64,000 bases of DNA from Chlorobiaceae bacterium (lineage in GTDB: Bacteria > Bacteroidota > Ignavibacteria > UBA10030 > SZUA-254), in NCBI GenBank assembly GCA_013824245.1, contig PNNN01000051.1, positions 53,415 to 117,414 of the forward strand. The letters run 5' to 3'. The position numbers and the translations under genes are program-made. This document shows, piece by piece, positions 14,512 through 25,891 of the stretch; position 1 is the stretch's first letter, and each line of letters opens with the position of its first letter. The notes beneath the pieces were generated by a model. It searched no databases, was not told where the DNA came from, and was given only the letters and a program-made list of their open reading frames with translations.

Positions 14512-15057
14512 GTGAAAATTTATACTAAAACCGGAGACAGGGGAGATACAGCGTTACTGGGCGGGAAACGCGTACAGAAGGATTCACTTCGAATAGAAAC
14601 ATACGGAACCATCGATGAGTTGAACAGCGTGATTGGCATCAGTCGCTCTTTGAATGAGCATCATGAAATTGATCTCCTGTTATTCAATCTTCAATCGGAG
14701 CTATTTACATTAGGTGCAGAACTTGCCACACCTGCGGGTGTGAAAAATTCTTCTACAAAATTTCTTTCAGATGAAAATATCATTCGTCTTGAAAAGCTCA
14801 TTGATGATATGGAAACCCGACTTCCACGTTTGAAAAATTTTATTCTTCCCGGAGGAAATAAATGTGCCGCAATGCTTCATTATGCACGGACGGTTTGTAG
14901 ACGCGCCGAACGATTGGCGGTCCGTTTAGCGCGGGATGAATCGATCCGCGATTTTCCCGTAATTTATCTCAATCGCTTGTCAGACTTTCTCTTTGTAATA
15001 GCACGCCTGTCCAATTCGCTATCGAATACTCCCGAAACAAAATGGTCGGCTGATTAA
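14512..15057 (+). CDS. ATP:cob(I)alamin adenosyltransferase, PduO type
   Basis: KIYTKTGDRG, GTIDELNS, FILPGG, RTVCRRAER and YLNRLSD motifs. Confidence 0.95.
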   Translation: MKIYTKTGDRGDTALLGGKRVQKDSLRIETYGTIDELNSVIGISRSLNEHHEIDLLLFNLQSELFTLGAELATPAGVKNSSTKFLSDENIIRLEKLIDDMETRLPRLKNFILPGGNKCAAMLHYARTVCRRAERLAVRLARDESIRDFPVIYLNRLSDFLFVIARLSNSLSNTPETKWSAD

Positions 15058-15125: not shown

Positions 15126-15200
15126 ATAAAAAGAGCATTGGCAGGTGGGCATTCCAACTTGGGAGGCGAAGTCAGAAACCGTGGATCCTGCCTAATGCTC
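15126..15200 (-). ncRNA. Candidate independently transcribed ~70 nt hairpin sRNA
   Basis: Promoter TTGACT-17-TATAAT puts +1 at about 15200, the first base of a rod-like fold with loop CGCCUCCC that is followed by a U-tract. Confidence 0.65.
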
Positions 15201-15206
15201 GTTATC

Positions 15207-15235
15207 ATTATACAACACTTTTTTGAAAAAGTCAA
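15207..15235 (-). promoter_or_regulatory. Near-consensus sigma70 promoter of the candidate sRNA
   Basis: Minus strand TTGACT (15235-15230), 17 nt spacer, TATAAT (15212-15207). Confidence 0.75.
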
Positions 15236-15302
15236 GAAAAAATTTCTGCGAAGAAATGATGAATAACATCTGATATATTAAGGAAATATTTATCGATATA
15301 TT

Positions 15303-15378: not shown

Positions 15379-15807
15379 ATGCTTACAGATTTTGGCAAAG
15401 TTTTCATCTTTTTTCTGATTGGGGGATTGTTTGTTGCAGCTGGATTGATTGCAGCATGGGTTATTCGTCCGAAAAGGTGGTATCCGTCGAAACTTTCTAC
15501 ATATGAATGCGGTGAAATTCCGGTTGGCGATGCAATTGTTAAGTTTAATATTCGATTTTACGTAATTGCCTTGATCTTCTTAATTTTTGATGTTGAAGTT
15601 GTATTTTTATTCCCCTGGGCAGTGGTGTTTAAGAACCTTGGAATGTTTGCATTTATTGAAATGCTCGTTTTTCTATCCATTTTGTTCGTTGGTTATGCCT
15701 ATGTGTGGGTAAAGGGGGACCTTGAATGGGACAAGCCAGCACCGCAACTTCCATCTATAAATTCAAAACAACTAAAAATTTCAACTCCACAAACTACTCC
15801 GGATTAA
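15379..15807 (+). CDS. nuoA: NADH-quinone oxidoreductase subunit A
   Basis: YECGE and [15 protein letters not shown] motifs. Confidence 0.96.
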
Positions 15808-15822
15808 ATTTTAATATAGAAT

Positions 15823-16314
15823 ATGGGACTATTGGATAAAAAATTTGACAATAGTAATATTGTTATCACATCGATGGATAATCTATTAAACTGGGCTCGG
15901 TTGTCATCGATGTGGCCCGTTCAATTCGGGCTTGCTTGCTGTGCTATTGAGATGATGGCTACCGGCGCATCACATTACGATCTTGATAGATTCGGAATAT
16001 TTTTCCGTGCAACTCCAAGACAAGCAGATGTGATGATTATTTCCGGGACAGTTACTTTAAAAATGGCGCCTCGAATAAAATTATTATTCGATCAAATGTC
16101 TGAACCCCGATATGTAATCTCGATGGGAAGTTGCGCTAATTGCGGAGGTCCCTACTGGGAACACGGTTATCACGTTTTAAAAGGAGTTGATCGCGTAATC
16201 CCGGTTGATGTATATATTCCCGGATGTCCACCCAGACCGGAAGCATTGTTAGAGGGAATCATGAAGTTGCAAGAGAAAATTCGTTCCGAAAGTTTAGCAA
16301 AGAAGAGTGCCTAA
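15823..16314 (+). CDS. nuoB: NADH-quinone oxidoreductase subunit B
   Basis: [16 protein letters not shown] and IPGCPPRPE (cluster N2 ligands). Confidence 0.97.
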
Positions 16315-16317
16315 AAT

Positions 16318-16797
16318 ATGACTTCTCAAGAAATTCACGAAAAAATAAAATTACAATTTCCCGCCGCAGTTCTTGAATCAAAGACTGAAGGCGTGGTTGA
16401 TCCATTCATTAAAATCGCGCCTGAATATGTGGCTGATGTAGCATCTTTCATCAGAGACAATGAAGAACTTGGTTTTGATTTTTTAATGTGTCTGAGCGGA
16501 ATTGATTATGGCAAAGGAACTCTTGGGGTAATATATAATATTTTTTCGATGAAACATCGTCACAAGTTGAATCTGAAAGTAGAAGTTCCGAAAGATAAAG
16601 CTGAAGTGCCGTCGGTTTCCCTAATATGGAACACAGCTAACTGGCACGAGCGTGAGGCGTACGACTTGATGGGAATTATTTTCATCGGTCACCCTGATCC
16701 CCGTCGCATCTTAATGCCGTACGATTGGGAAGGTCATCCGCTCAGGAAAGATTATAAAACTCCGGAATTTTATCAAGGCATGAAAGTTCCTTATTGA
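16318..16797 (+). CDS. nuoC: NADH-quinone oxidoreductase subunit C
   Basis: [18 protein letters not shown] and GHPLRKDY motifs. Confidence 0.96.
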
Positions 16798-17966
16798 GTG
16801 ATATTATGGCTGAAATTTCAGAAGAAATAATTAAAACATCTACCGGAACAACTCTTCGCCACGAAGAGATGGTTATCAATATGGGACCGCAACATCCGTC
16901 CACTCACGGCGTTCTGCGACTTGAGGTTGTGGTCGACGGCGAAATAGTGATAGATGTAATCCCTCATATCGGATACCTGCATCGTTGTTTTGAAAAACAT
17001 GCTGAATCGATGACCAACTACCAGCAGGTTGTTCCATATGTTGATCGCATGGATTATTGTGCGGCAATGAATATGGATTTTGGTTACGTGCTTGCTGTTG
17101 AAAAACTTCTTGGCATTCAGGTGCCAGAACGTGTAGAATATATACGTGTCATCATGGCAGAGTTACAGAGGATCGCTTCACACCTGATTGCCGCCGGCAC
17201 TTATGGGTTAGATATCGGCGCCTTTACTCCATTTCTTTATATGTTCCGGGAACGTGAGCGCATTCTTGATCTATTCGAAATGACATGCGGCGCACGACTT
17301 CTATATAACTACATGTGGGTAGGTGGAGTTTCGCACGATCTTCCACCCGGATTCATAGACAAAGCTAAAGATTTTTGTCAATACTTCAGACCAAAAATAA
17401 AAGAATACAACGATCTCCTAAGCTACAACGAAATTTTTATCAAACGAACCGCTAATGTTGGAATTCTCCCAAAAGATGTTGCAATCTCTTATGGCATCTC
17501 AGGACCGGTGCTTCGCGGTTCAGGTGTTAACTTCGATCTTCGCCGCGATGATCCGTATTCAATTTATCATAAATTCGATTGGCAGCCGGAAATCGGTAAG
17601 GGTGAAGTTGGCACGGTTGGCGATTGCTGGGATAGATACATGGTGCGAATGCGTGAAATGGAACAGAGCATAAATATTGTAGAGCAAGCGCTCAACCAAA
17701 TTCCAGAGGGGAACATTGCCTCGGCAATACCTAAACGCATCAGACCAAATCCGGGCGATGTTTATGTGCGCACTGAGTCGGCAAGAGGTGAATTAGGATT
17801 TTATGTTATCAGCGACGGCAGCGGCAAACCGTACCGTATCAAAGCCCGGTCACCTTCGTTTGTAAACCTCAGCGTGATACCTGAAATTTCCCGCGGCGGT
17901 ATGATAGCAGACCTCGTTGCAATTGCCGGAAGTCTTGATATCGTGTTAGGAGAGGTCGACAGGTAA
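16794..17966 (+). CDS. nuoD: NADH-quinone oxidoreductase subunit D
   Basis: [23 protein letters not shown] and C-terminal DIVLGEVDR. Confidence 0.97.
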
Positions 17967-17971
17967 ATAGT

Positions 17972-18991
17972 ATGGAACAGATTCTTAGAAATATTCTCGA
18001 CAACGATTTTTTTGTTTACGGCATAATGGGTATTGTTCCGTTAGTATGGATAGTGCCGTATGCATTATTCGCAATCTGGCTTGAGCGCAAGATATCGGCG
18101 CATATGCAAGACCGACTTGGTCCTATGCGCACAGGCGGATGGCACGGATGGTCGCAAACCATTGCAGATATGCTAAAACTATTACAGAAAGAAGATATTA
18201 TTCCGGCGGCGGCAGATAAAACTCTTTTTAATATTGCGCCTTATATAATCTTTGTTTCCGCATACGCCGCGTATGCTGTTATTCCGTTTAGCAGTGGATT
18301 TATTGGAGCCGATATAAATGTTGGAATATTTTATATCATTGCAGTTACATCACTTGCAGTGGTCGGAATTTTGATGGGTGGGTGGGCATCCAATAATAAA
18401 TGGTCGTTGCTCGGAGCAATGCGTGCAACAGCCCAAATAGTGAGTTACGAAATTCCATCGGTGCTTGCTGTTCTTGCCGTCGTTATGATTGCCGGTACAT
18501 TATCGCTTCAGGAAATTAATAATTTACAAACCGGATGGTTTTGGAATTGGTTTGTGTTTCAGAAATTTCCGTTTGTGTTCGTTGCGTTTATAATTTATTT
18601 TGTCGCCTCACTTGCCGAGGTAAACCGTGTTCCTTTCGACATTCCCGAAGCCGAATCGGAGCTTGTTGCCGGATATGTAACCGAGTATAGCGGTATGAAA
18701 TTCGCAATGTTCATGTTTGCCGAGTTTGTCAACATGTTCGCTGTATCTGCCGTTGCGGCAACACTTTTCTTTGGCGGATGGAATAGTCCATTCGGTGAAT
18801 TCTTAAGCGGACCAATTTGGGGTGTGTTCTGGTTTTTATCTAAAGGAATGATGCTCGTATCTGTTCAAATGTGGCTGAGATGGACTTTACCCCGATTAAG
18901 GGTAGATCAATTGATGTATGTTTCGTGGAAAGTCTTAACACCATGGGCATTCGCCTGCGTGATTGCAGTCGGTTTCTGGATGATGTTGTAA
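17972..18991 (+). CDS. nuoH: NADH-quinone oxidoreductase subunit H
   Basis: [14 protein letters not shown] and [15 protein letters not shown] motifs. Confidence 0.97.
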
Positions 18992-19000
18992 GTTAGGATA

Positions 19001-19591
19001 ATGATGATGAGAAAATATTTCATTGATATTTATAAAACAATTTGGTCGATACTCATCGGAATGAGAATAACGTTTGGACATTTGTTCGTTCCGGCGGTAA
19101 CAATACAATATCCCGATGTAAAACCCAAGTTGCCCGAGCGCGCTCGAAATCGTTTGTATGTGAATATGGATGATTGCATCGGCTGTTTGCAATGCGAGAT
19201 GGCTTGCCCGGTTAATTGTATTGAAATTGAAACTGTAAAGTCGCTGCCGACAGACGATCTTGGAACCACATCAACCGGACAGAAGAAAAAACTCTGGGTC
19301 ACAAAATTTGACATTGATATTGCAAAATGTTGTTTCTGCGATCTTTGCGTTTACCCCTGTCCAACCGAGTGTATTAAGATGACTGATGTTTATGAATTTT
19401 CGGAATTCGACAGGAATAATTTGCTTTATAATTTTGTAACTTTAACCAAGCAAGAAGTTGAAACAGTGAAAGCCAAAGCGGCGGAATTTGAGAAAGAACA
19501 GGCGGCTAAGAAAGCTGCCGCTGCCGCGCAGGCAAAAGCAGCACCAGTTGTAGCGCCGGCGCAACAATCGCCTCCGGCTCAACCATCGTAA
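19001..19591 (+). CDS. nuoI: NADH-quinone oxidoreductase subunit I
   Basis: Two CxxCxxCxxxCP motifs; VTIQYP; Ala/Pro-rich tail. Confidence 0.95.
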   Translation: MMMRKYFIDIYKTIWSILIGMRITFGHLFVPAVTIQYPDVKPKLPERARNRLYVNMDDCIGCLQCEMACPVNCIEIETVKSLPTDDLGTTSTGQKKKLWVTKFDIDIAKCCFCDLCVYPCPTECIKMTDVYEFSEFDRNNLLYNFVTLTKQEVETVKAKAAEFEKEQAAKKAAAAAQAKAAPVVAPAQQSPPAQPS

Positions 19592-19601
19592 GGTATAATG
19601 T

Positions 19602-20117
19602 ATGAATCTTGTTGATATTATTTTTTACTTCTTCGCATTAATAACTCTTGTTTCTGCGGCTATAACGGTTTATTCCCGGAACATTATTTATTCAGCGTTC
19701 TCACTTTTATTTACTTTCTTTGGCGTTGCGGGTATTTATGTCCTTCTTAACGCCGATTTTATCGCTGTTGCACAGATATTGATCTATGTTGGCGGAATTC
19801 TTATGCTATTGGTATTCGGAGTGATGTTGACCCATAAAGTTATTAATGTAGAAATTAAAACAGGAATATTAAATGTCGTTCCCGGTTCCATCATCACTGC
19901 CATTATCGGGGGTACGTTGTGCGGTGTTTTCGTTGTAACAGATTGGTTCATCGTAGAAGGTGTGCCGCCAATAAAATCTACGACAACTGAAATTGGAACG
20001 ATGTTTATGACAAAATATTTACTGCCGTTTGAAATAGCTTCCGTTGTTTTACTGGTAGCATTGATCGGTGCCGCATACATCGCCCGGCGCGATAAATCAA
20101 AAAATCAATCTGCCTAA
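19602..20117 (+). CDS. nuoJ: NADH-quinone oxidoreductase subunit J
   Basis: QILIYVGGI and YLLPFEIASVVLLVALIGA motifs. Confidence 0.95.
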   Translation: MNLVDIIFYFFALITLVSAAITVYSRNIIYSAFSLLFTFFGVAGIYVLLNADFIAVAQILIYVGGILMLLVFGVMLTHKVINVEIKTGILNVVPGSIITAIIGGTLCGVFVVTDWFIVEGVPPIKSTTTEIGTMFMTKYLLPFEIASVVLLVALIGAAYIARRDKSKNQSA

Positions 20118-20147
20118 TGCTTATAAATATTTTTTATTGAAATCATC

Positions 20148-20456
20148 ATGCAAGTCGGATTATCACATTACCTTTTTTTGAGCGGGATACTATTCGCGCT
20201 CGGTCTTTATGGCGTAATTACGCGCCGTAATGCAATACTAGTTTTAATGGGAATCGAGTTGATACTTAATGCCGCTAATATCAACTTTATTGCGTTTGCC
20301 CGATATGGCGGTATGCAAATAGACGGACAAATGATGGCTGTCTTCGTAATCATTTTAGCCGCGGCAGAAGCGGCAATAGCGCTGGCAATCGTTTTGAATA
20401 TCTATAAACAATTCAAGACGGTGAATGTTGACGAAATTAATAAGTTGAAGGAGTAA
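20148..20456 (+). CDS. nuoK: NADH-quinone oxidoreductase subunit K
   Basis: RRNAILVLMGIELILNA and AAAEAAI motifs. Confidence 0.96.
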   Translation: MQVGLSHYLFLSGILFALGLYGVITRRNAILVLMGIELILNAANINFIAFARYGGMQIDGQMMAVFVIILAAAEAAIALAIVLNIYKQFKTVNVDEINKLKE

Positions 20457-20460
20457 CGAT

Positions 20461-22707
20461 TTGACACCGGAACTGCTTGTAAAATTATCACTCTTAGTAC
20501 TTTTTCTTCCTCTTTTCAGTTTCATCGTTCTCGTATTTTTCGGGAAACGGCTTTCAAGGCAAGGAGATTGGTTCGGGACATCCATCCTCTTTATAACTCT
20601 TGCATTTTCTTCTATTATTCTTTATAGCAAATTAACGAGCTTTCCGGAACCGATAAATTTTAACTTTCTCTGGGTTGACTTCGGGAATGTTCCGCTCCTC
20701 GGTACTTTGAAGATAACATTAGGATTGGTGCTGGATAATCTTTCTGCCATCATGCTGGTGGTTGTTGGCATTGTAAGTGCGCTTGTCCATCTTTTTTCAA
20801 TCGGTTACATGCATGGGGATGTACGATACTCGCGTTACTTTGCATATCTCGGTGTCTTTACGTTTTCGATGTTCATGATCGTTCTAACGAATAACTTTTT
20901 TACGATGTATGTTGGGTGGGAACTGGTCGGTTTAAGCTCATATCTTCTAATCGGTCATTGGTATGAAAAAAAATCGGCGTCGAATGCTGCAATGAAAGCG
21001 TTCATTGTAAACCGTGTTGGTGATATCGGTATGTTTGCCGGGATCTTGATTTTGTTTTATACATTTAAAACATTCGGATTCAACGAAATATTCTCGGCTA
21101 TCGGTTCTGGGAAAATTCCGATGGAAAGCGAAGGATGGCTGACGGCTTCAGGTATTCTGATATTCTGCGGAGCCATTGGTAAATCGGCGCAATTCCCACT
21201 GCATGTGTGGCTGCCCGATGCTATGGAAGGTCCCACTCCCGTTAGCGCATTGATCCATGCCGCAACTATGGTTGCCGCCGGCGTTTATCTCGTTGCGCGA
21301 ACATATCCAATCATGACTGCAGATACATTGATGGTGATAGCGTATATCGGTGCGATCACCGCATTCATTTCTGCCACTATTGCTATCGCTCAAAATGATA
21401 TTAAAAAAGTTCTCGCATACTCTACCATCTCTCAACTCGGATACATGGTGATGGGTCTGGGAGTTGGGGCTTACACTGCGGGTTTCTTTCATCTAACAAC
21501 TCATGCAATGTTCAAAGCCGGATTATTTCTTGGTTCCGGTTCAGTGATTCACGCGATGCACAACGCTCTTCATCATCAAAAAGATCATCACACAGATCCC
21601 CAAGATATTAGAAATATGGGCGGACTTGGCAAAAAGATGAAAATAACTTTTATCACTTTTTTAATCTATACACTTGCAATATCTGGCGTGCCTTTTACTT
21701 CAGGTTTTTTAAGCAAGGATGAGATTCTTGCCGGCACACTTGCCTATGGTGGTTTGACAGGGCATTATTTAATACCGATTGTCGGATTCTTTGTTGCCGG
21801 TTTAACTGCATTTTATATGTTCCGACTTGTGATTCTCACCTTTCTTGGCGCTCCGGTAGACAGTCAACGTTTAGAGCATGTACATGAATCTCCCAAAACG
21901 ATGACGATACCGTTAATAATTTTCGCTGTGTTTAGTTTCTTCATTTTCTTTTCGTTCAATCCTTTTGGTGCTTCTTCGGGTTGGTTCTTCCATGCGATTG
22001 AAAGACCAGAGGCAGTTGTTCCCATTGCAGTTCAGGCGGCTAATAATGTTACGTTTGAAGAAGCGCTCCATCATTCACACACACCTGCAATGATCTTGTC
22101 GTTGATTGTTGCCGGTATAGGAATATTACTTGCTTATGCAACATACAAATGGAAGAAGATCAATGCCGATGCTGTTGCTGAGAAATTAAATCCATTATAT
22201 AAGTTCCTTTTGAATAAATGGTATTTTGATGAACTATACGATAAGATGGTTATTGGCGCAACTCTTTCGTTTACGAAAATTCTTCGGTGGTTCGATAATA
22301 ATATTATCGACGGTATCGTGAATGGATCGGCAGGTTGGACAAAGGCGATTGTTTTTGGATATACGGATCATCGAAAAAATACTCGATATAGTTCACTGAT
22401 ATTTATTTTATTCGGAACTCTGCTTTCGATTCTTGTCGCATTTTTTACAGGTCAATGGTTTTGGGTACAAGGTGCTATTGGCACTGCAATCATTATGGCA
22501 TTGTTAAGCGGCGCCCTATCGTTCTTTTTCTTCTGGTCGGGCGCAGGCGGATTCGATAAGCATGTTGTAGATGGACTTGTGAACGGTATTGCCTATGTTT
22601 CAGGATTTTTCGGATTAATATTCCGTAAATTCCAAACCGGGCGTGTACAAACTTATATCGTGTTTGTACTCTTCGGCGTTATGGTGTTGTTCTATATTTT
22701 TCGTTAA
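20461..22707 (+). CDS. nuoL: NADH-quinone oxidoreductase subunit L (with C-terminal insertion)
   Basis: WELVGLSSYLLIG, GKSAQFPLHVWLPDAMEGPTPVSALIHAATMV and QTGRVQTY motifs. Confidence 0.96.
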   Translation: MTPELLVKLSLLVLFLPLFSFIVLVFFGKRLSRQGDWFGTSILFITLAFSSIILYSKLTSFPEPINFNFLWVDFGNVPLLGTLKITLGLVLDNLSAIMLVVVGIVSALVHLFSIGYMHGDVRYSRYFAYLGVFTFSMFMIVLTNNFFTMYVGWELVGLSSYLLIGHWYEKKSASNAAMKAFIVNRVGDIGMFAGILILFYTFKTFGFNEIFSAIGSGKIPMESEGWLTASGILIFCGAIGKSAQFPLHVWLPDAMEGPTPVSALIHAATMVAAGVYLVARTYPIMTADTLMVIAYIGAITAFISATIAIAQNDIKKVLAYSTISQLGYMVMGLGVGAYTAGFFHLTTHAMFKAGLFLGSGSVIHAMHNALHHQKDHHTDPQDIRNMGGLGKKMKITFITFLIYTLAISGVPFTSGFLSKDEILAGTLAYGGLTGHYLIPIVGFFVAGLTAFYMFRLVILTFLGAPVDSQRLEHVHESPKTMTIPLIIFAVFSFFIFFSFNPFGASSGWFFHAIERPEAVVPIAVQAANNVTFEEALHHSHTPAMILSLIVAGIGILLAYATYKWKKINADAVAEKLNPLYKFLLNKWYFDELYDKMVIGATLSFTKILRWFDNNIIDGIVNGSAGWTKAIVFGYTDHRKNTRYSSLIFILFGTLLSILVAFFTGQWFWVQGAIGTAIIMALLSGALSFFFFWSGAGGFDKHVVDGLVNGIAYVSGFFGLIFRKFQTGRVQTYIVFVLFGVMVLFYIFR

Positions 22708-22749
22708 TTAATTTTTTTTGAAAAAGTTTTTAATTATTAAAAAGGTTAA

Positions 22750-24360
22750 GTGCACATGAGTTTTCTTGGAGTCGGAATAATATCTTGGATAACATTCCTG
22801 CCAATTGTTGGAATGATTTTCGTTCTGCTTCTGCCGAAAGATAACAAGAAGGCGATACGTTGGACATCGGTGCTGTTTACTGCACTGCAAGTGATGTTAG
22901 CTGTATTCATTTATATGAATTTCAATCGCAGTCTTGCCGGGGTGAACTTGCCCGAAGGTTTTCAATATGTAGAAAAAGCGAGCTGGATCGACATTAAATC
23001 GGTTTCATGGATCGGCAGAATTCATATAGATTATTTTGTGGGAATAGATGGGTTGAGCGTATTGATGGTGATCCTCACCGCTATCATTTCATTCATCGCA
23101 GTGTTTGCTTCTTGGGGTATTGAAAAATCGTTGAAAGGTTATTTTGCTCTTCTCCTTCTTCTCGATGCCGGCATGATGGGTGTGTTCGTATCGCTCGATT
23201 TCTTTTTATTCTACGTCTTCTGGGAAGTAATGCTGCTGCCGATGTACTTCTTAATCGGTGTTTGGGGTGGACCGCGCCGTGAATATGCCGCAATAAAATT
23301 TTTCCTATATACATTGTTCGGAAGCGTACTTATGCTCCTTGCAATGTTGGCTCTTTATTTCAGTGTTTCGATTATTGATCCTGCTTCTGGAGAAAAGATT
23401 CATACATTTAATATGCTCGCTATGATGAACCCGACAAATTATGATCCCGGTTCCATACTTGCGGGTGTCGGAACATCTTGGCGTTATATGGCTTTCATTG
23501 CTTTATTCATTGGTTTCGCAATTAAAGTTCCAATTTTTCCGTTTCACACGTGGTTGCCCGATGCGCACGTTGAAGCGCCAACAGCTATCAGCGTTATTCT
23601 TGCCGGAGTTTTATTGAAGATGGGAACATACGGCATACTTCGAGTAAGTTTTCCTATGTTTCCCGATGCAACGCTCCATTATCAAGTGCCGCTCGCTATT
23701 CTCGGTTTCATCAACATAGTTTACGGCGCTCTTGTGGCGATGGCACAGGATGATTTCAAAAAACTTATCGCGTATTCCAGTATCAGTCACATGGGAATCG
23801 TGATACTCGGCATGTCGGCGTTGAACACTCAGGGTATAACGGGTGCAATACTTCAGATGTTCAATCACGGTACAATAACGGCGATGCTCTTCTTGATTGT
23901 GGGTGTACTTTATGATCGCGCGCATACCCGCGGACTGAACGACTTCGGCGGATTGATGAACCAGATGCCGAAATATTCTGGAATTATGACTATTGCCTTC
24001 TTTGCTGCGCTTGGCTTACCGGGTTTAAGCGGATTTATCAGCGAAGCATTCTCGTTCCTCGGCGCATTTCAGGTCGATTCGATTCGTTGGATCACAATCG
24101 CATCGTCAGTGGGAATTGTTCTCACCGCCGCTTATATGTTGTGGACTTTGCAGCGTGTATTTCTTGGAACACTTCCTGAAAAATGGAAATCATTACCCGA
24201 TATAAACGGGCGTGAATTGTTTACACTTATTCCGCTGGCAATAATTGTTATATTTCTCGGAATCTATCCGTCGCCGGCTATCAATCTTATGACTTCTGCC
24301 GTTAATAATCTGGTGAGCGTGTTAAACCAAAGCGGCGGAGCAATGTTACTCGGACAATAA
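22750..24360 (+). CDS. nuoM: NADH-quinone oxidoreductase subunit M
   Basis: FWEVMLLPMYFLIG, KVPIFPFHTWLPDAHVEAPT and AYSSISHMG motifs. Confidence 0.96.
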   Translation: MHMSFLGVGIISWITFLPIVGMIFVLLLPKDNKKAIRWTSVLFTALQVMLAVFIYMNFNRSLAGVNLPEGFQYVEKASWIDIKSVSWIGRIHIDYFVGIDGLSVLMVILTAIISFIAVFASWGIEKSLKGYFALLLLLDAGMMGVFVSLDFFLFYVFWEVMLLPMYFLIGVWGGPRREYAAIKFFLYTLFGSVLMLLAMLALYFSVSIIDPASGEKIHTFNMLAMMNPTNYDPGSILAGVGTSWRYMAFIALFIGFAIKVPIFPFHTWLPDAHVEAPTAISVILAGVLLKMGTYGILRVSFPMFPDATLHYQVPLAILGFINIVYGALVAMAQDDFKKLIAYSSISHMGIVILGMSALNTQGITGAILQMFNHGTITAMLFLIVGVLYDRAHTRGLNDFGGLMNQMPKYSGIMTIAFFAALGLPGLSGFISEAFSFLGAFQVDSIRWITIASSVGIVLTAAYMLWTLQRVFLGTLPEKWKSLPDINGRELFTLIPLAIIVIFLGIYPSPAINLMTSAVNNLVSVLNQSGGAMLLGQ

Positions 24361-24391
24361 TATTTTCCTATTCAAGGAATGGTATCGCTAA

Positions 24392-25891
24392 ATGCTTGAA
24401 CAAATATTACAAAGTATAAAATATTTTCAACCGGAAACAGCGCTGGTTGTTTCTTTCTGTTTAATAGTTATTGCTGATCTATTTTTGAAAAAACGCAATG
24501 AACTAACTTCTTATCTTGCGCTGATAGCAATACTGATAACCGCTTATTTTCTGGTACAGCAAGGAACGGTCGGAACACAATCGATTTTCTTCGACATGTT
24601 CGCCATCGATCCGTTTTCACTTTTCTTCAAGGCGATTATTTTAACAAGCTCGTTTTTTGTCATTCTTTTCTCAATCTACTCTAAAGAATTACAAGGACGA
24701 CCCAAAGGGATCGGAGAGTATAATGCTCTCATAATTGCGCTTACTCTGGGTATGTTTTTGATGACCGGTGCAACAAATTTGTTGATGATTTATCTCGCAC
24801 TTGAGTTATCAAGTTTAACCTCTTACATCCTTGCCGGATACACCAACGAAGCAAAAGATTCAAGCGAAGCATCTTTAAAATATATCATATATGGAGCGTT
24901 ATCATCCGGGATAATGCTTTACGGAATCTCGATAATCTATGGATTGACAGGTTCGCTCGATCTCAACACTGTTCACCAAGCATTGGTGCTGCAAAGCGTG
25001 AACCAAGCCGCATTGATAATTGCGGGTATTTTCATCGTGGTTGGTTTCGGTTATAAAATATCGGCAGTGCCTTTTCATTTTTGGACACCGGATGTGTACG
25101 AAGGTGCCCCTGTTACAATCACCGCTCTTCTCTCTGTCGCATCGAAAGCCGCCGGCTTTGCAATGCTGATTAGATTTATCAAAGTTACTTTCATCGATCC
25201 GGCAATCGGAAACCTTGGACCCGGCATGTGGGCTGTTCTTCGCGGATTTGATTGGAATTTTGTACTCGCTGTTTTATCTGTCCTTTCGATGACGATAGGA
25301 AATCTGGTCGCCCTTTCACAGAAAAACTTAAAACGACTTCTCGCATACTCAAGCATTGCGCATGCAGGATATATGTTGATGGGTTTAGTTGTCTTCAGTA
25401 ACGAAGGCATTGCGGCAGTGATGATTTATTTCATAATCTATCTCTTCATGAATTTGGGCGCGTTCTATGTAATAATGTTAGTCGCAGACCGCATAGGAAG
25501 CGAAAATATTGACGACTATCGTGGCTTAGGATACCGCACTCCTCTTATCGGCGTATCTATGACAATATTTTTACTATCGCTAACAGGTGTGCCTCCAACC
25601 GCTGGTTTCATTGGAAAGCTTTATCTTTTTTCTGCGCTCATAAGTGCAAAAGTATTTTGGCTTGCGATTGTCGGCGTTCTTAACAGTGTTGTTTCGTTAT
25701 ATTATTATGTGCGTGTACTCAGGAATATGTTTCTCCGCGATCCTCAGCCAAATGCTCAACCGCTGCACTTTTCTAATATGGAAATCTTAATATTATTACT
25801 TCTCGTCGTTCCCACTTTTCTTTTGGGTTTATATTTCACCCCGATCGTGGAATATGCACAAGCATCAATTGGAATGTTCGGTGTGCGATAG
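24392..25891 (+). CDS. nuoN: NADH-quinone oxidoreductase subunit N
   Basis: EASLKY, KISAVPFHFWTPDVYEGAP and AYSSIAHAGY motifs. Confidence 0.96.
   Translation: MLEQILQSIKYFQPETALVVSFCLIVIADLFLKKRNELTSYLALIAILITAYFLVQQGTVGTQSIFFDMFAIDPFSLFFKAIILTSSFFVILFSIYSKELQGRPKGIGEYNALIIALTLGMFLMTGATNLLMIYLALELSSLTSYILAGYTNEAKDSSEASLKYIIYGALSSGIMLYGISIIYGLTGSLDLNTVHQALVLQSVNQAALIIAGIFIVVGFGYKISAVPFHFWTPDVYEGAPVTITALLSVASKAAGFAMLIRFIKVTFIDPAIGNLGPGMWAVLRGFDWNFVLAVLSVLSMTIGNLVALSQKNLKRLLAYSSIAHAGYMLMGLVVFSNEGIAAVMIYFIIYLFMNLGAFYVIMLVADRIGSENIDDYRGLGYRTPLIGVSMTIFLLSLTGVPPTAGFIGKLYLFSALISAKVFWLAIVGVLNSVVSLYYYVRVLRNMFLRDPQPNAQPLHFSNMEILILLLLVVPTFLLGLYFTPIVEYAQASIGMFGVR

Follow-up and report, generated by a model that had tools for sequence, protein, structure and literature searches.

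A predicted small RNA with an anti-Shine-Dalgarno loop, encoded beside nuoA, and its sibling hairpins in a family of Ignavibacteria

Introduction

The window, as we call the whole 64,000-nucleotide stretch of DNA analyzed here, contains a short GC-rich element in the spacer upstream of nuoA that has the look of a gene but codes for no obvious protein. The initial annotation of this element (15126..15235) read it as a stand-alone, uncharacterized small RNA (sRNA) gene on the minus strand, whose product would either pair in trans with GGAGG ribosome-binding sites or bind a protein. Is the element a gene, to which class of RNA does it belong, and what might its product do? These questions have a wider setting. 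Ignavibacteria are known almost entirely from metagenome bins, and our search of open-access papers and preprints found no report of sRNAs or RNA motifs in Ignavibacteria. The sRNA gene described below, from uncultured Ignavibacteria, is previously undescribed and represents a family that is new, though of a familiar type.

Results

A promoter, a hairpin and a U-tract on the minus strand

Direct reading of the minus strand reproduced the annotated letters exactly. A -35 hexamer, TTGACT (15235..15230), is separated by a 17-nt spacer from a -10 hexamer, TATAAT (15212..15207), and both were also recovered by a promoter scan. After a further 6 nt the predicted RNA begins, in the order GAGCAUUAGGCAGG AUCCAC GGU UUCUGACUU CGCCUCCC AAGUUGGAA U GCC CA CCUGCC AAUGCUC, followed by UUUUUAUUU. 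The predicted sRNA is about 73 nt long (15200..15128, minus strand), with its 5′ end placed from the -10 hexamer and its 3′ end from the U-tract (15132..15128), and it is richer in GC than the genome (0.49 versus 0.40). An A/T-rich tract, AGAAAUUUUUUC, lies 5′ of the -35 hexamer on the same strand (15236..15250). Its A-run and T-run recur at the same place in aligned relatives, and it looks like an UP element and may act as one.

The promoter scan scored the region upstream of the sRNA at 11 of 12 matches. This score is weak alone, because the surrounding 1.5-kb region holds seven promoter-like sites where 4.6 ± 2.5 are expected, and conservation is what carries the argument. All 30 distinct homologous loci show a TTGnnn-17-TAnnnT arrangement whose position relative to a CCACG motif is constant (-48 to -53); the spacer is exactly 17 nt every time. 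A T-run of at least four residues follows in all 30, at 17–28 nt past the core. The terminator scan called nothing at the sRNA locus, presumably because a hairpin of this length, with its interruptions, falls outside the tool's definition. All 30 loci thus share the arrangement expected of a trans-acting sRNA, namely its own promoter, its own intrinsic terminator and no same-strand gene downstream.

The spacer between the two hexamers holds a palindrome, ACTTTTTCAAAAAAGT (15216-15231, minus strand). Similar T-run/A-run inverted repeats are present in close relatives and absent from distant ones; the palindrome could be an operator or a mere effect of composition. A Fur box or a Rex box at the promoter was considered and dismissed by eye, the stretch from -10 to +1 and the spacer palindrome being conserved in close relatives only.

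The minus-strand RNA folds into one long hairpin at -30.0 kcal/mol (z = -4.96), a value equaled by none of 200 shuffled sequences, and the plus-strand fold is weaker (-28.6 kcal/mol, z = -3.27). The hairpin is interrupted and spans 68 nt (15200..15133) before running into UUUUUAUUU. At its base, the 5′ half of the stem, GAGCAUUAGGCAGG (15187..15200), pairs with the 3′ half, CCUGCCAAUGCUC (15133..15145), as GAGCAUU.GGCAGG against CCUGCCAAUGCUC; this basal stem doubles as the predicted terminator stem, and compensatory changes in 9 of its 11 pairs support both halves alongside the fold. Above it an asymmetric internal loop sets AUCCAC (15181..15186) opposite CA (15147..15146), and within this second C-rich unpaired motif CCAC is invariant in the type-A alignment (we use type A for the element of the window and its close homologues). 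A GG/CC step with a bulged U leads to an inner helix of 9 bp that includes two G-U pairs. The helix is capped by an 8-nt apical loop, CGCCUCCC (15161..15168), containing CCUCC, the core of the anti-Shine-Dalgarno (anti-SD) sequence of 16S rRNA. All 26 type-A sequences in the alignment have the loop unchanged.

The element proved to be conserved in relatives. When the 26 distinct sequences were aligned with MAFFT alone, the 40 nt from CCAC to GCC were almost invariant and the basal stem varied, with indels of 1–3 nt. RNAalifold recovered the hairpin from this alignment and showed compensatory change at 8 of 22 pairs. In an alignment of 31 sequences fitted to the covariance model, which is biased toward the model's structure by construction, both partners had changed at 15 of 22 pairs; 96.9% of its cells were paired, against 86.3% after shuffling (a level that 0 of 500 shuffles reached) and 30–46% with slid partners. 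Among the 675 pair cells of the same alignment there are 73 G-U pairs; read from the plus strand they would turn into A-C mismatches. The two G-U pairs of the inner helix are kept in 22 and 25 of the 31 sequences. These cells bear out the annotated preference for the minus strand. The plus strand has no T-tract after the hairpin. The G-U pairs, the promoter and the T-tract together fix the strand as minus, and the combination of a conserved single-stranded seed with covarying structural elements is the one expected of a trans-acting sRNA.

The further claim that the element encodes no open reading frame (ORF) needs rewording. Mechanical ORFs of 41 aa (minus strand) and 60 aa (plus strand) do overlap it, but no frame is conserved, because relatives differ by indels of 1–3 nt. 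A small protein or a type I toxin-antitoxin module was ruled out by those indels among relatives whose length is not a multiple of three.

Type A is confined to one family in the genomes searched

BLAST found one copy of the sRNA in its own genome (76 contigs, scored 100% complete), and many other genomes of the family gave clear homologues. An exact search for the core in 185,579 species genomes (one genome per species) returned 27 records, all of them metagenome bins labeled Ignavibacteria, Ignavibacteriales, Bacteroidota or "uncultured Chlorobiaceae." A covariance model of type A, R1, matched 25 of the 32 genomes sampled from the window's family; the window's own element has a covariance-model match of 97.2 bits. 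None was found with R1 in 118 genomes from eight other families of the order, nor in a class-wide sample of 149 genomes outside the family. These samples were searched with strict filters, and absence here means not found in the genomes searched. The samples were drawn by tool, and related genomes within them are not independent.

The neighborhood is largely constant. On the plus strand, nuoA (15379..15807; Pfam PF00507) is the divergent neighbor at 27 of 30 loci, a set in which one genome is counted twice; of the three others, one is truncated at a contig end and two have other neighbors. A cobalamin adenosyltransferase gene (14512..15057, plus strand; Pfam PF01923) is the convergent neighbor in the window and is adjacent in 25 of 30 loci. 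Five genomes of the family without type A keep nuoA with a TTGAC-type promoter of its own. We note that the nuo cluster (15379-25891) seemingly consists of 11 consecutive genes without room for nuoE, nuoF and nuoG, an impression based on Pfam matches for nuoA–D and on ORF sizes for the remainder.

Conserved promoter and terminator signals, covarying stems seen both by RNAalifold and in the model-fitted alignment, and the Rfam result given below strongly support the view that the element is a conserved gene for an independently transcribed sRNA, with transcription deduced from these signals. This agrees with the initial annotation. A search of sequencing runs found no RNA run that covers the locus; the one run containing part of the stretch is of groundwater DNA.

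A family of sibling hairpins

R1 also returned weak matches away from nuoA, in which CCACG and CUUCGCCUCCCAAG are kept and the inner helix is changed by compensation. The syntenic ortholog in a related genome (G007) has the loop CAUCACCUCCCAGG and carries AUCACCUCC, a run of 9 nt identical to the 16S rRNA tail. A metagenome scan for CCACG-N7/8-CUUCGCCUCCCAAG yielded 60 loci, 33 of them with the type-A core. Among the 27 with other spacers, about seven are true siblings with a hairpin and a U-tract; most of the 27 do not fold into a hairpin and were rejected as apparent chance matches in GC-rich coding DNA.

A second covariance model, R2, was built from six siblings. It matched 39 of 41 sampled genomes of the family at E ≤ 0.01; full-length matches at E ≤ 3e-6 were obtained in 36 of the 41, with one to eight per genome, and these included genera without type A. 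In the order-wide sample, R2 matched 30 of 32 genomes of the family and 1 of 118 outside it, the latter a short, weak match. Across the sibling alignment (56 matches, 54 distinct) the CCUCCC apical loop is nearly invariant, the variants being CCCUCC, CUCCC, AUCCC and CCCCCC. The 5′ internal loop is likewise C-rich, with equivalents such as CCCAC, CCCCC and CCUCC. Both helices covary: 24 of 25 pairs are changed on both sides, and 91.9% of cells are paired against 67.3% after shuffling, counts that include two rows which are short, plain terminators. A fixed loop on free stems is the opposite of what a repetitive extragenic palindrome (REP) or a mere terminator would show. The sequence comparisons thus identify the predicted sRNA of the window as the nuoA-linked type-A member of a lineage-specific family of sibling hairpins in one family of Ignavibacteria.

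The window's own genome (G000) holds a second member, at G000:C15:54074-54155 on the plus strand (locus L241, 1501-1582; R2, 30.3 bits), with the apical loop GCCCUCCCA and a U-tract; BLAST had not picked up this divergent member. What precedes the hairpin differs from sibling to sibling, and some have a TTGACT- or TTGGAA-type promoter 25–35 nt before it. Several details of individual siblings were recorded. Two (L175 and L206) have an extra CCUCCCA in the leader 5′ of the hairpin. Paired siblings lie a few hundred bases apart in two genomes, in tandem at G013:C24:2234-2879 (L183) and on opposite strands at G291:C228:9271-9799 (L201). The sibling at L091/L171 (G009:C13) is divergent from a gene for a [2Fe-2S]-binding oxidoreductase subunit, echoing the nuoA arrangement, and other siblings adjoin response-regulator genes.

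The element matches no known RNA class

The Rfam search that the initial annotation had proposed gave no match. Rfam includes the SRP, 6S, RsaE, alpha-r14 and Chlorobi-1 families; cmscan against Rfam 15 found nothing overlapping 15126..15235 at E ≤ 10 and no gathering-score match in the whole window. Seven sibling loci scanned at E ≤ 1 were equally blank, except for a chance Spot 42 match elsewhere. The exclusion of SRP and 6S RNA in the initial annotation also stands. The bacterial small SRP RNA (RF00169) of this genome was found on another contig (G000:C10:52649-52749, 74.6 bits), and the element itself did not match the family. 6S RNA (RF00013) is about 180 nt long with a central bubble; the element, at about 73 nt, did not match it either. 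Elsewhere in the genome a 6S-like match, at G000:C2:105195-105393 on the plus strand, reached 36.3 bits (gathering score 46.4; E = 1.2e-5), and it may be a divergent 6S RNA of the lineage.

Three further candidates were rejected on structure and sequence. A CsrA sponge of the CsrB/RsmZ type would carry repeated GGA motifs in loops, but the GGA of the basal stem is not conserved here (GAGA and AAGA variants keep the pairing); moreover, neither CsrA nor Hfq has a Pfam match in the window's genome, which was scored 100% complete. The alpha-r14/NfeR1 type consists of three hairpins, each with an unpaired CCUCCUCCC, and here there is one hairpin with the motif CCUCCC. A REP or MITE palindrome, which would come in many near-identical copies per genome with constant stems and a variable loop, was set aside on the one BLAST copy in G000 plus one distant sibling, with covarying stems and a fixed loop. 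The many dispersed copies that the initial annotation had named as evidence against an sRNA gene were not seen: relatives carry one to eight siblings, with covarying stems and conserved loops.

The apical loop resembles the anti-SD sequence

The 16S rRNA of the same genome ends in GGAUCACCUCCUUUCU, which means that the apical loop carries the CCUCC core of the anti-SD sequence. The loop stretch UCGCCUCC resembles UCACCUCC of the 16S tail, the shared form being UC(G/A)CCUCC. This CCUCCC-type loop, noted in the initial annotation, is the most conserved element of the RNA, also in the divergent siblings, and this conservation fits an anti-SD seed.

What such a seed could pair with is limited by the genome. 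SD-like motifs occur in a minority of genes: GGAG at -14 to -9 in 259 of 2,113 first-ATG contexts and AGGA at -15 to -10 in 358 of 2,113. The median duplex of a start region with the 16S tail is -6 kcal/mol. Most genes therefore lack an SD sequence, and a broad SD-masking role would have few substrates.

The target scans did not discriminate. Against 2,642 start regions, the 14-nt loop seed showed no enrichment, with 1.1% of regions at or below -14 kcal/mol compared with 0.45–2.1% for six shuffled seeds. The top eight targets of the energy scan have no common theme (VWA/BatA, an ABC-2 permease, a GT4 glycosyltransferase, CHASE3, PlsX, SMC, LptC and one unknown protein). Perfect complements of at least 10 nt to any part of the sRNA were 10–14-mers at chance level in G000, none of them at a start codon, and 8–18-mers of the loop complement gave no convincing ribosome-binding site in that genome. 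Of 391 GGGAGG sites, 7 are placed before an ORF start as a ribosome-binding site would be; the genes are those for PHP, MraY and small unknown proteins, again with no common theme. Within the nuo operon, the scan found no ribosome-binding site complementary to the loop; the best site is inside the nuoD coding sequence. As to the annotated role of a trans-acting sRNA that pairs with GGAGG ribosome-binding sites, the conservation of the loop fits an anti-SD seed, but target prediction performed no better than shuffled seeds.

One gene escaped these scans. The set of start regions omitted ORFs shorter than 80 aa, and for this reason rpsU, which encodes bS21, was missed. In G000:C34 (locus L246) its ATG is at 1492 and its SD sequence at about 1474-1487, in the leader GGAAGGAGGUGAAUCGA-AUG. 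This SD is "perfect," offering 12–14 bp (GGAAGGAGGUGA). Its initiation region forms a predicted duplex of -22.3 kcal/mol with the 16S tail and ranks first, the best of the 2,642 other start regions reaching -17.8 kcal/mol. With the sRNA loop, the leader forms a predicted 9 bp at -15.5 kcal/mol and ranks 12th. The rpsU SD is kept in 30 of 30 rpsU loci of the family, with a mean loop duplex of -16.5 kcal/mol over 8–10 bp. The energies of the loop duplex and of the 16S-tail duplex are correlated (r = 0.67), and the complementarity between rpsU and the loop exists because the rpsU SD is perfect; any anti-SD look-alike would score similarly. The SD is also kept in two genomes (G006 and G036) in which we found no member of the sRNA family. 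From sequence complementarity, rpsU is the best-motivated candidate target.

Discussion

A model for translational control

The sRNA probably controls the translation of other genes. The mechanism we favor, to which we would give an even chance, is that of an independent sRNA gene whose loop masks G-rich, SD-type sites in trans without Hfq; trans action, pairing and target are all read from the features described above. A strong sigma-70-type promoter (A/T tract, TTGACT, 17 nt, TATAAT) would start transcription at the first base of the hairpin, and the basal stem with the U-tract would serve as the sRNA's own intrinsic terminator. The apical loop, CGCCUCCC, with its anti-SD CCUCC core would be the functional element, probably assisted by the second C-rich loop, AUCCAC. 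It would pair, without Hfq, with G-rich SD-type sequences in the initiation regions of a few mRNAs and block access of the ribosome. For rpsU (bS21), whose SD is stronger than any other in this genome, the case as a candidate is best motivated. Hfq-independent SD pairing in trans is favored because the anti-SD core sits in the loop, because neither Hfq nor CsrA was found in the genome, and because alpha-r14/NfeR1 and RsaE/RoxS provide precedents.

The loops might instead be read by a protein, which the sRNA would titrate or deliver. Possible partners are a KH-type or other binder of C-rich RNA, or the proteins that hold the 16S tail, bS21, bS18 and bS6. In type A, the inner helix (on both of its strands) and the asymmetric internal loop hardly change from genus to genus. 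For the helix this exceeds what a pure seed model needs, and a protein partner may be the reason. All siblings keep two distinct C-rich motifs in unpaired regions, the loop resembles the 16S tail (identically over 9 nt, AUCACCUCC, in the G007 ortholog), that tail is bound by bS21, bS18 and bS6 in Flavobacterium (PMC7797042), and the target scan produced no enriched set of mRNAs. Yet the inner stems vary freely among siblings, so any protein partner must read mostly the loops; across 30 loci no protein gene is consistently linked except nuoA and the adenosyltransferase gene, Hfq and CsrA were not found, and the GGA is not conserved. On balance a protein-binding or decoy RNA seems to us rather doubtful.

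Position suggests another reading, in which nuoA–N would be regulated in cis, at the level of transcription or translation, by the strong divergent promoter or by the RNA. The two promoters might compete or share an operator, or the RNA might pair with nuo mRNA. At 27 of 30 loci the element and nuoA stand back to back, and the gene on the other side differs in 5 of 30; this arrangement speaks for such a link, as does the likewise divergent [2Fe-2S] oxidoreductase gene at sibling L091. We nevertheless think a cis-acting nuo regulator quite improbable: no nuo ribosome-binding site is complementary to the loop (the best site being within nuoD), the window's nuoA leader lacks any G-rich run, five genomes of the family dispense with type A and retain nuoA with its own TTGAC-type promoter, and most siblings lie in unrelated contexts. 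Least credible of all, in our estimation very improbable indeed, is a purely structural element with no function in trans, whether a REP-like dispersed palindrome or a device that ends transcription from the convergent adenosyltransferase gene or insulates the nuo promoter from it. A hairpin with a U-tract between two genes, and several similar hairpins in relatives, is what such an element would look like. Against it stand a dedicated promoter conserved in 30 of 30 loci, an invariant loop on covarying stems where a terminator or REP would show the reverse, the plus strand without a T-tract after the hairpin, the persistence of the element in 5 of 30 loci without an adjacent adenosyltransferase gene, and a single copy by BLAST in its own genome.

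Pairing in trans with SD-type sites thus remains our preferred reading, and a bolder reading deserves mention although we consider it a long shot. The family could consist of mimics of the 16S anti-SD tail that set the SD-reading state of the ribosome in an SD-poor lineage of the FCB group, either by masking the uniquely perfect rpsU SD or by binding the proteins responsible for occluding the tail. In both cases less bS21 would be loaded, which would shift the cell between SD-blind and SD-responsive translation, and the nuoA-linked copy would tie this switch to the respiratory state.

Whatever the mechanism, the result is a well-defined, testable sRNA family, described by two covariance models and about 80 members, in which the signature loop is fixed and the stems are free. 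Its setting is a lineage in which most genes lack an SD and rpsU has an exceptional one, the arrangement that in Bacteroidetes has been proposed to underlie autoregulation of bS21. An abundant RNA with an anti-SD loop would, in such a cell, offer a handle on the control of SD-dependent translation. If the RNA represses a few mRNAs only, it would be an ordinary, though new, regulator.

Comparison with known systems

RepG of Helicobacter pylori has its seed in a C/U-rich terminator loop, and the LhrC siblings of Listeria are several sRNAs that share UCCC loop motifs. We found no sequence relation of either to the present sRNA.

A close functional parallel is with the alpha-r14/NfeR1 sRNAs of rhizobia. 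These carry an ultraconserved anti-SD motif, CCUCCUCCC, in hairpin loops on divergent stems and act by occluding ribosome-binding sites (PMC10746234). Like them, the present family displays a C-rich anti-SD motif (here CCUCCC) in the loops of divergent stems and occurs in several copies. The rhizobial RNAs, however, have three motif hairpins each (PMC10746234), whereas here each gene has one hairpin, which is also the terminator. They belong to another phylum, and no homology was detected (no Rfam match at E ≤ 10).

RsaE/RoxS of Firmicutes has C-rich unpaired motifs that are proposed to bind SD sequences, and it is linked to respiration and redox metabolism (PMC6158497). The present sRNA shares a C-rich unpaired motif, and its link to respiration is one of position next to nuo only. 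Its sequence and fold are unrelated to those of RsaE/RoxS (no Rfam match); RoxS is controlled by Rex and ResDE (PMC6158497), and no such operator was recognized at the sRNA here.

A likeness of another kind is with the ribosome itself. The loop (UC(G/A)CCUCC) resembles the 16S tail (UCACCUCC); unlike the tail, it belongs to a separate small transcript that is not ribosomal. In Bacteroidetes ribosomes the 16S tail is occluded, with bS21, bS18 and bS6 bound to it in Flavobacterium; the paper does not mention Ignavibacteria (PMC7797042). Like the Flavobacteriia described there (PMC7797042), the Ignavibacteria genome studied here has an exceptional rpsU SD.
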